Origin: a virus
Taxonomy: Duplodnaviria > Caudoviricetes
Direction: 5' to 3' (one strand)
DNA length: 57,230 bases
IMG/VR virus record: IMGVR_UViG_3300025327_000033
Location: 1 to 57,230 of that record
Each line of letters opens with the position of its first letter. The first letter of the stretch is position 1. Shown here piece after piece: positions 10,996 through 11,093 of the stretch. The notes under the pieces were generated by a model. That model searched no databases. It was not told the origin of the DNA and was given only the letters and a program-made list of their open reading frames with translations. The translations under genes were made by a program, and so were the position numbers.

Positions 10996-11093
10996 TGGCT
11001 CGTCTCATCAGGCCGGCGGTAGCCATTCGCCGGCGACGTCGGTGGCCATTGACGATGACGCGCGTCCAACCGCATGGCCATCGACGTTTCGAC
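10996..11093 (-). ncRNA. Type II hammerhead ribozyme with loop I/3'-tail pseudoknot; predicted cleavage after GUC, between 11035 and 11034
   Basis: GUC-GAAAC-GUCG..stem III..CGAC-GUC; stem I GCCGGCG/CGCCGGC; core CUGAUGA; stem II GAC/GUC; loop UGGCU pairs with tail AGCCA. Confidence 0.88.

Follow-up and report, generated by a model that had tools for sequence, protein, structure and literature searches.

Hammerhead ribozymes lying between phage genes are generally thought to split operon RNA into separate mRNAs. The element considered here is a predicted type II hammerhead at positions 10996–11093, minus strand, of IMG/VR record IMGVR_UViG_3300025327_000033, a complete viral record of 57,230 bp that was analysed over its whole length (hereafter the window) and that comes from an uncultured tailed phage of 66% GC without close relatives. 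Intergenic type II hammerheads of phages have been on record since 2011, and the accessible part of a 2019 review still describes their purpose as undefined and the benefit to the phage as unresolved (PMC6765202). The available text of Perreault et al. (2011) describes type II hammerheads with a pseudoknot between loop I and the 3' tail, and proposes that prophage-flanking hammerheads divide long phage transcripts into mRNAs the length of a gene or an operon (PMC3088659). According to the accessible part of a further report, Desulfovibrio vulgaris has three predicted type II hammerheads that lie close to phage-like genes and self-cleave in vivo; they are like the window copy in type and in their hypothetical or phage-like gene neighbours, but were confirmed in vivo by cyPhyRNA-seq, whereas the window copy is a prediction from an uncultured viral genome (PMC8782182).

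Compared with the hammerheads behind Rfam family RF02276 (Hammerhead_II), as far as the available text of PMC3088659 describes them, the window element has an identical catalytic core, closed stems I and III, a short and open stem II, loop I paired with the sequence after stem II in a pseudoknot of at least 4 bp, and a site between phage genes. It differs in a stem III approximately 38 nt longer than the Rfam consensus, with a score under the family's gathering threshold, and in the 202 nt or more of structured, apparently non-coding RNA before it, where a stop codon within a few nucleotides would be usual. The element is an ordinary example of a well-known type, in a placement common in phage genomes. 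What the computations show is the motif, its significance, its agreement with a covarying family and where it is placed; cleavage and all of its downstream consequences we infer. We put the probability that this is a genuine type II hammerhead within a polycistronic phage transcript, with a role in mRNA processing, at roughly 0.85.

Read 5' to 3' on the minus strand, the element opens with the stem II 5' strand GUC (11093–11091) and the GAAA core (11090–11087), the last A of which pairs with U11036. The stem III element follows (11036–11087; 52 nt from A15.1 to U16.1). Its proximal helix reads as 6 bp, comprising the A15.1-U16.1 pair and CGUCG/CGACG, beyond which lie a 1-nt A/C mismatch, a 7-bp UGGCCAU/AUGGCCA extension and a further apical hairpin. 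The cleavage triplet GUC (11037–11035) separates stems III and I and, together with the chemistry known for the family, places the predicted scissile bond between C17, which is C11035, and G11034. Stem I (11012–11034) is a GC-rich hairpin of 7 bp, GCCGGCG (11034–11028) with CGCCGGC (11018–11012), closed by the 9-nt loop AAUGGCUAC, in which the pseudoknot strand UGGCU (11026–11022) starts at loop position 3. The CUGAUGA core (11011–11005), the stem II 3' strand GAC (11004–11002), a spacer G (11001) and the complementary 3' pseudoknot strand AGCCA (10996–11000) complete the element. The conserved core is intact (C3 U4 G5 A6 N7 G8 A9, G12 A13 A14, the A15.1-U16.1 pair and H17), and the topology is that of type II, stems I and III being closed by loops and stem II (GUC/GAC, 3 bp, with G10.1-C11.1) being open. 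The pseudoknot is of 5 bp and begins 1 nt past stem II, in keeping with the class described in the available text of PMC3088659. The original prediction, made from the letters alone, had the coordinates, stems, pseudoknot and 11035/11034 site right on the minus-strand reading, and the core motifs CUGAUGA, GAAA and GUC that it reported can be read directly. In the minimum free energy (MFE) fold of the isolated 107-nt element stems I, II and III all form, and stems I and III still form in fold contexts of 221, 371 and 571 nt.

The motif is unlikely to be a chance occurrence. A descriptor demanding CUGAUGA, GAAA, G10.1-C11.1, a stem II of at least 2 bp, a stem III of at least 5 bp including A-U, U-H, and a stem I of at least 4 bp, with helix requirements set loose on purpose, was run over both strands of the window and of 300 dinucleotide shuffles as a control. 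It found one site in the window, 11093–10996, and none in the 300 shuffles. RF02276 aligns over its full length (model positions 1–66 of 66) at 30.1 bits, with a 38-nt insertion in the stem III loop and E-values of 2.1e-4 in 301 nt, 2.3e-3 in 3.3 kb and 9.4e-6 per record. A second covariance model, R1, whose 89 training sequences are viral type II hammerheads from outside the window, scores the element at 51.8 bits (rough E-value 1.5e-12), and this is its only match at E ≤10 across the 57 kb.

The comparison set came from the pattern GUCGAAAC ... GUC ... CUGAUGAGAC, which matched at least 120 stretches of IMG/VR contigs; from the matches listed, 170 distinct type II hammerheads were parsed, and they come from 94 viral loci other than the window. 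A loop I/tail pseudoknot of at least 4 bp is present in 132 of the 170, against a mean of 66 and a maximum of 80 when the tails are dealt among the rows. The modal family pseudoknot has 5 bp at a tail offset of 1 nt, the same as in the window, and this offset is the commonest (82 of 132). In an R1 alignment of 150 members, 94.7% of cells pair, both sides vary at 19 of the 20 pairs, and no shuffled or slid control approaches these values; the pseudoknot, which lies outside R1, covaries on both sides at all five pairs, with 91.4% of cells pairing in the same members. The window element can form every covarying pair of this alignment and of the pseudoknot. Stem III length is the feature that varies most freely in the family, from 10 to more than 80 nt, and the 52 nt of the window lie at the long end of it, as only 4 of the 170 members have a stem III element of at least 50 nt.

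Position adds a further line of evidence. Of 169 family members, 148 carry a Shine-Dalgarno sequence (SD) and a start codon in the 40 nt that follow stem II, compared with 427 of 1690 random positions, and the distance from stem II to the start codon is 23 nt in the window against a family median of 25 nt. On the upstream side, the ribozyme follows a stop codon at a median distance of 2 nt and within 20 nt in 129 of 153 members, such that stop codon, ribozyme, ribosome-binding site (RBS) and start codon is the usual order in the phage cassette. The window departs from this at its 5' side, with a gap of 202 nt to a doubtful 63-amino-acid open reading frame (ORF) or of 383 nt to a 102-amino-acid gene. 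Adjacency to the RBS is therefore the family rule, which may reflect nothing beyond the tight spacing of phage genes. No statement of ribozyme–RBS spacing as a rule was found in the literature searched, whose coverage stopped short of supplements and subscription journals; the available text of Perreault et al. (2011) mentions one hammerhead 13 nt upstream of a start codon (PMC3088659).

The same arrangement occurs in multi-copy form elsewhere. In a 69-kb IMG/VR contig (L126), four minimal type II hammerheads of approximately 75% GC lie within 1.1 kb (3575–4682); three begin on the stop codon of the preceding small gene or directly behind it, the fourth begins 9 nt after such a codon, and each stops 8–18 nt short of the next start codon. 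One of them precedes a GACACAGGGAG leader, as found also in the window. An array scan of IMG/VR, with 200 matches from 83 sources in total, further recorded single viral contigs carrying roughly 9–12 type II copies per 10–15 kb (L057, L077, L019, L011, L059 and L068). The window element shares with such cassettes (four copies in 1.1 kb in L126, nine pattern matches in L057) the succession of ribozyme, pseudoknot tail, spacer, SD and start codon, and with one L126 copy the leader itself. L126 and L057 place a minimal ribozyme of approximately 65 nt before many consecutive genes and flush with the preceding stop codon, whereas the window phage has a single, longer copy and provides its other early genes with hairpins and leaders containing the 10-nt motif GACACAGGGA but no ribozyme. 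As one clean example the window copy changes little by itself. The comparison set of 170 hammerheads from 94 loci is more useful, since in it the ribozyme typically sits tightly between the stop codon of one gene and the RBS of the next, and such a placement, as read from the sequences, would fit the cutting of operon RNA into single-gene messages with defined leaders.

These comparisons provide a model for how the element may act. As RNA polymerase passes, stems III and I would fold as local hairpins, and stems I and II would be docked by the 3-bp stem II and the UGGCU/AGCCA pseudoknot. Self-cleavage is then predicted after C11035, by analogy with established hammerhead chemistry. The upstream product would carry a 2',3'-cyclic phosphate on C11035, just past the long stem III hairpin, and would contain three or four small genes and approximately 200 nt of structured RNA. 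The downstream product would begin with a 5'-OH on G11034, followed by the stem I hairpin and pseudoknot, the SD 6 nt later and the DUF7678 gene. Because stems I and III each lie within one product and only the 3-bp stem II joins the two, the products would be expected to separate immediately. The operon would then likely be divided into an upstream and a downstream mRNA, with independent stabilities and with 5' leaders for translation that are defined and context-free. Synthetic insulators of the RiboJ type work along these lines, a hammerhead placed 5' of the RBS stripping off upstream RNA to give the message a fixed 5' end. RiboJ is engineered from a satellite-RNA hammerhead, and the same purpose is not established for natural phage hammerheads.

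Several observations weigh against this assignment. The RF02276 score lies below the curated gathering score of 37, so that a standard annotation run would miss the element, and the ribozyme is indeed absent from the list produced by a whole-window Rfam scan at the gathering threshold. The covariance-model check put forward with the original prediction thus succeeded in giving a full-length match and fell short in bit score; the gathering score is an annotation threshold and not a structural feature. The sequences used to train R1 were collected by means of the core and stem II pattern of the window element itself, and part of the 51.8 bits is consequently shared by construction; hammerheads in L126 with a GGC/GCC stem II also reach approximately 50 bits with R1. 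No orthologue of the window ribozyme was found in the searches described below, leaving covariation at the level of the family and none specific to the lineage. A 167-nt fold comprising the ribozyme and downstream sequence favours a non-hammerhead alternative, in which the distal stem III 5' strand pairs with the start-codon region. Thermodynamic folding also gave no clear change in SD accessibility on cleavage, and an effect on translation is unsupported by that test: the candidate mechanism in which cleavage frees the SD from an upstream CUCCC anti-SD was rejected as unsupported, since cleaved RNA and uncleaved RNA of 371 and 571 nt gave similar pairing probabilities at both the SD and the AUG.

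The 167-nt fold and the single occurrence bear on the possibility that the element is a decayed or trapped hammerhead without a useful cleavage rate, a relic that would serve at most as a pair of hairpins before the RBS. The phage has one copy and no conserved orthologue of it, and the long stem III extension can pair with the start-codon region, a pairing that wins in one fold context. The available text of Perreault et al. (2011) moreover reports that altered helix lengths near the pseudoknot can make the ribozyme less active by orders of magnitude, and that activity was lacking in some hammerhead-like candidates (PMC3088659). A relic would, however, be expected to have accumulated mismatches in its core or helices, whereas the window core has zero deviations, and its stem lengths and the length and offset of its pseudoknot take modal family values. 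The one unusual length, that of stem III, belongs to the feature that varies most in the family. On balance decay seems quite improbable, and we retain the view of an intact ribozyme.

The 10-mer CAAUGGCCAC at 11051–11042, in the 3' strand of the stem III extension, recurs at 10980–10971, where it spans the start codon of the DUF7678 gene, forming an exact 10-nt direct repeat written CAATGGCCAC (11042–11051 and 10971–10980, minus strand). The 5' strand of the extension can pair either within stem III or with the start region because both carry CAAUGGCCAC. As a post-hoc observation, 1 of 2000 stem III shuffles reached a 10-nt match to the start region. Mimicry of the start region by stem III was rejected as a general family trait, the longest shared word being distributed as in the control across 149 members. 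In the window itself it might be part of a dual-purpose switch, in which the ribozyme sets the 3' end of a rod-like RNA of approximately 200 nt (11295–11095) and stem III toggles the pairing of the start codon. Pairing within the ribozyme would then represent the active fold with the start codon free, and pairing with the start codon an inactive ribozyme with the start masked, tying DUF7678 translation to correct folding and cleavage. We regard such a switch as doubtful.

The long upstream RNA is, with the extended stem III, one of two unusual traits of the window copy. At least 202 nt directly upstream of the ribozyme (11094–11295, minus strand) appear to be non-coding and strongly structured. 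The 207 nt at 11094–11300 fold with an MFE of -114.5 kcal/mol (z -4.33), which none of 200 shuffles equals, and show in no frame the pattern of GC at third and second codon positions (GC3/GC2) that is typical of coding sequence. The main feature of the fold is a rod-like hairpin of approximately 150 nt ending at 11095, 1 nt short of the ribozyme. How long the non-coding gap is, 202 or 383 nt, hinges on whether the 63-amino-acid ORF is a gene. Either gap is exceptional against the family's median of 2 nt between stop codon and ribozyme. These properties raise the question as to whether the ribozyme mainly forms the 3' end of a discrete structured non-coding RNA of approximately 200–380 nt, extending from the last clear gene to the ribozyme, rather than processing mRNA. 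On release, this RNA would have the stem III hairpin and a cyclic phosphate at its 3' end. Against this, an element forming the 5' end, such as a promoter or second ribozyme, was looked for and not found. The structured RNA has no Rfam match at E ≤1 and no homologue was found for it elsewhere, hence conservation lends the proposal no evidence. High GC content can by itself make folds stable, an effect that the shuffled controls take into account. Neither role excludes the other. A main function in forming a non-coding RNA is unlikely in our view, though it is the alternative to which we give most weight, and processing of a polycistronic mRNA remains the favoured role.

Downstream, the ribozyme abuts an RBS as originally predicted. 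The leader motif GACACAGGGAGG (10984–10995, minus strand) follows the pseudoknot directly and includes the SD GGGAGG (10989–10984), which lies 6 nt past the end of the pseudoknot tail and 5 nt before the ATG at 10978. This ATG opens a gene of 106 amino acids (10658–10978, minus strand) whose product matches Pfam PF24726 (DUF7678) with 40.5 bits against a cut-off of 27, over residues 21–94. The gene shows a coding-like GC content of 0.70/0.47/0.84 by codon position, and a search of 5.8 billion proteins returned one homologue of the protein, of 105 amino acids and 44% identity, on a 903-nt contig. The frame is open further upstream, as an ORF of 219 amino acids (10658–11317) starts with ATG and runs in frame with the gene, and the hammerhead-like sequence could in principle lie within an N-terminal extension of the DUF7678 protein, its resemblance to a ribozyme being incidental. 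The extension nevertheless has a non-coding-like GC content of 0.68/0.74/0.70 by codon position, the ATG at 10978 is preceded by a leader common to neighbouring genes, the Pfam domain fits within the short form and the sole homologue found has the short length. An incidental full motif is moreover expected in fewer than 1 of 300 windows. A coding origin is accordingly barely credible, and we continue to treat the stretch as an RNA element.

The leader is a repeated one. The GACACAGGGA motif that it contains occurs in seven exact copies in the window, all on the minus strand and within 2.9 kb (10284–13172), and in 14 matches when up to one mismatch is allowed, a number reached by none of 100 shuffles. 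Five exact copies and a one-mismatch copy at 8769–8760 lie 1–12 nt before the starts of small ORFs with coding-like GC3, a further one-mismatch copy lies at 9988–9997, and one exact copy (12894–12885) falls just past the -10 box of the promoter described below. GACACAGGGA(G) is an extended, repeated RBS leader. No second or degenerate ribozyme was found near the other GACACAGGGA leaders, either with Rfam or with R1 run with filters off over 8000–13600, where the next best score was 9.1 bits.

These copies bear on a proposed coupling between cleavage and an antisense RNA. The original prediction held that a plus-strand RNA from 13077–13213 might bind immediately after the pseudoknot. GACACAGGGA does start at 10995, directly 3' of the pseudoknot strand, and a same-strand copy at 13172–13163 would make a plus-strand transcript of that region complementary to it. 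The complementarity consists of the 10-nt motif alone, which is common to seven sites and has no specific tie to the ribozyme. A promoter scan of 10300–13600 showed no plus-strand promoter, and no plus-strand promoter- or terminator-like site brackets 13077–13213. In L126, where this motif also follows a hammerhead, it is just a portion of the RBS leader. We consider antisense coupling very improbable and let this part of the prediction go.

The wider setting is consistent with a ribozyme inside a polycistronic transcript. The window encodes a terminase, portal, MuF-like protein, protease–capsid fusion and tape measure protein, all on the minus strand, and the ribozyme sits in a co-directional block of small minus-strand genes with coding-like GC3. 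A sigma-70-like promoter, TTGACA-17-GATAAT with 11 of 12 consensus matches (12906–12934, minus strand), is the only promoter-like site in 10300–13600 and lies 1.9 kb upstream of the ribozyme, with no terminator-like site found on the minus strand between the two. This promoter would drive the transcript bearing the ribozyme. The placement inside an operon is thus borne out by the co-directional block, the promoter and the uninterrupted interval, while the names 'early operon' and PL used for the block are analogies and not results. The nearest clearly coding upstream gene, of 102 amino acids (11477–11785, minus strand), is preceded by GACACAGGGAG and has a GC content of 0.64/0.52/0.79 by codon position; its product has no Pfam or PHROG match. 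The ATG of the 63-amino-acid ORF (11296–11487, minus strand) overlaps the end of this gene and follows GGAGGA. The GC content of this ORF by codon position, 0.72/0.58/0.77, is ambiguous, and its product likewise has no Pfam or PHROG match.

Searches for relatives of this particular copy were largely negative. A blastn search of 10400–11700 against the phage collection gave no match, the DUF7678 protein has no relative among viral contigs, and a pattern specific to stem III matched no viral contig. A search with the neighbouring phrog_21015 protein reached two viral loci and five named phages, in every case at less than 50% identity; the two viral loci were both scanned and neither has a hammerhead. 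The pattern CTGATGAG with GACACAGGGA matched two viral and 84 metagenome stretches; hammerheads were present at one of the two viral loci (L126) and at three of the 80 metagenome loci scanned, and none of those at the two viral and 80 metagenome loci resembles the window copy. The best terminase relatives (52–53% identity) lie on 4.5-kb fragments, and among longer records of distant terminase relatives (33–40% identity) none of five has a hammerhead. Such absence fits the patchy distribution of hammerheads. The best terminase relatives in genomes come from an Anaerolineales metagenome-assembled genome (MAG; 40%) and from Actinomycetes MAGs (31–34%).

Some features of the window lie apart from the ribozyme. 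Its only Rfam match at the gathering level is an int-alpA RNA motif (RF02996; 36550–36615, minus strand; 41.2 bits against a gathering score of 35.8), located between the tape-measure gene and the upstream ORFs of the tail region. An ORF of 1009 amino acids (41869–44898, minus strand) matches PHROG families for a head-maturation protease and for a major head protein and protease, as a fused form. A further ORF of 536 amino acids (144–1754, minus strand) combines ParB-like and DNA methyltransferase matches.

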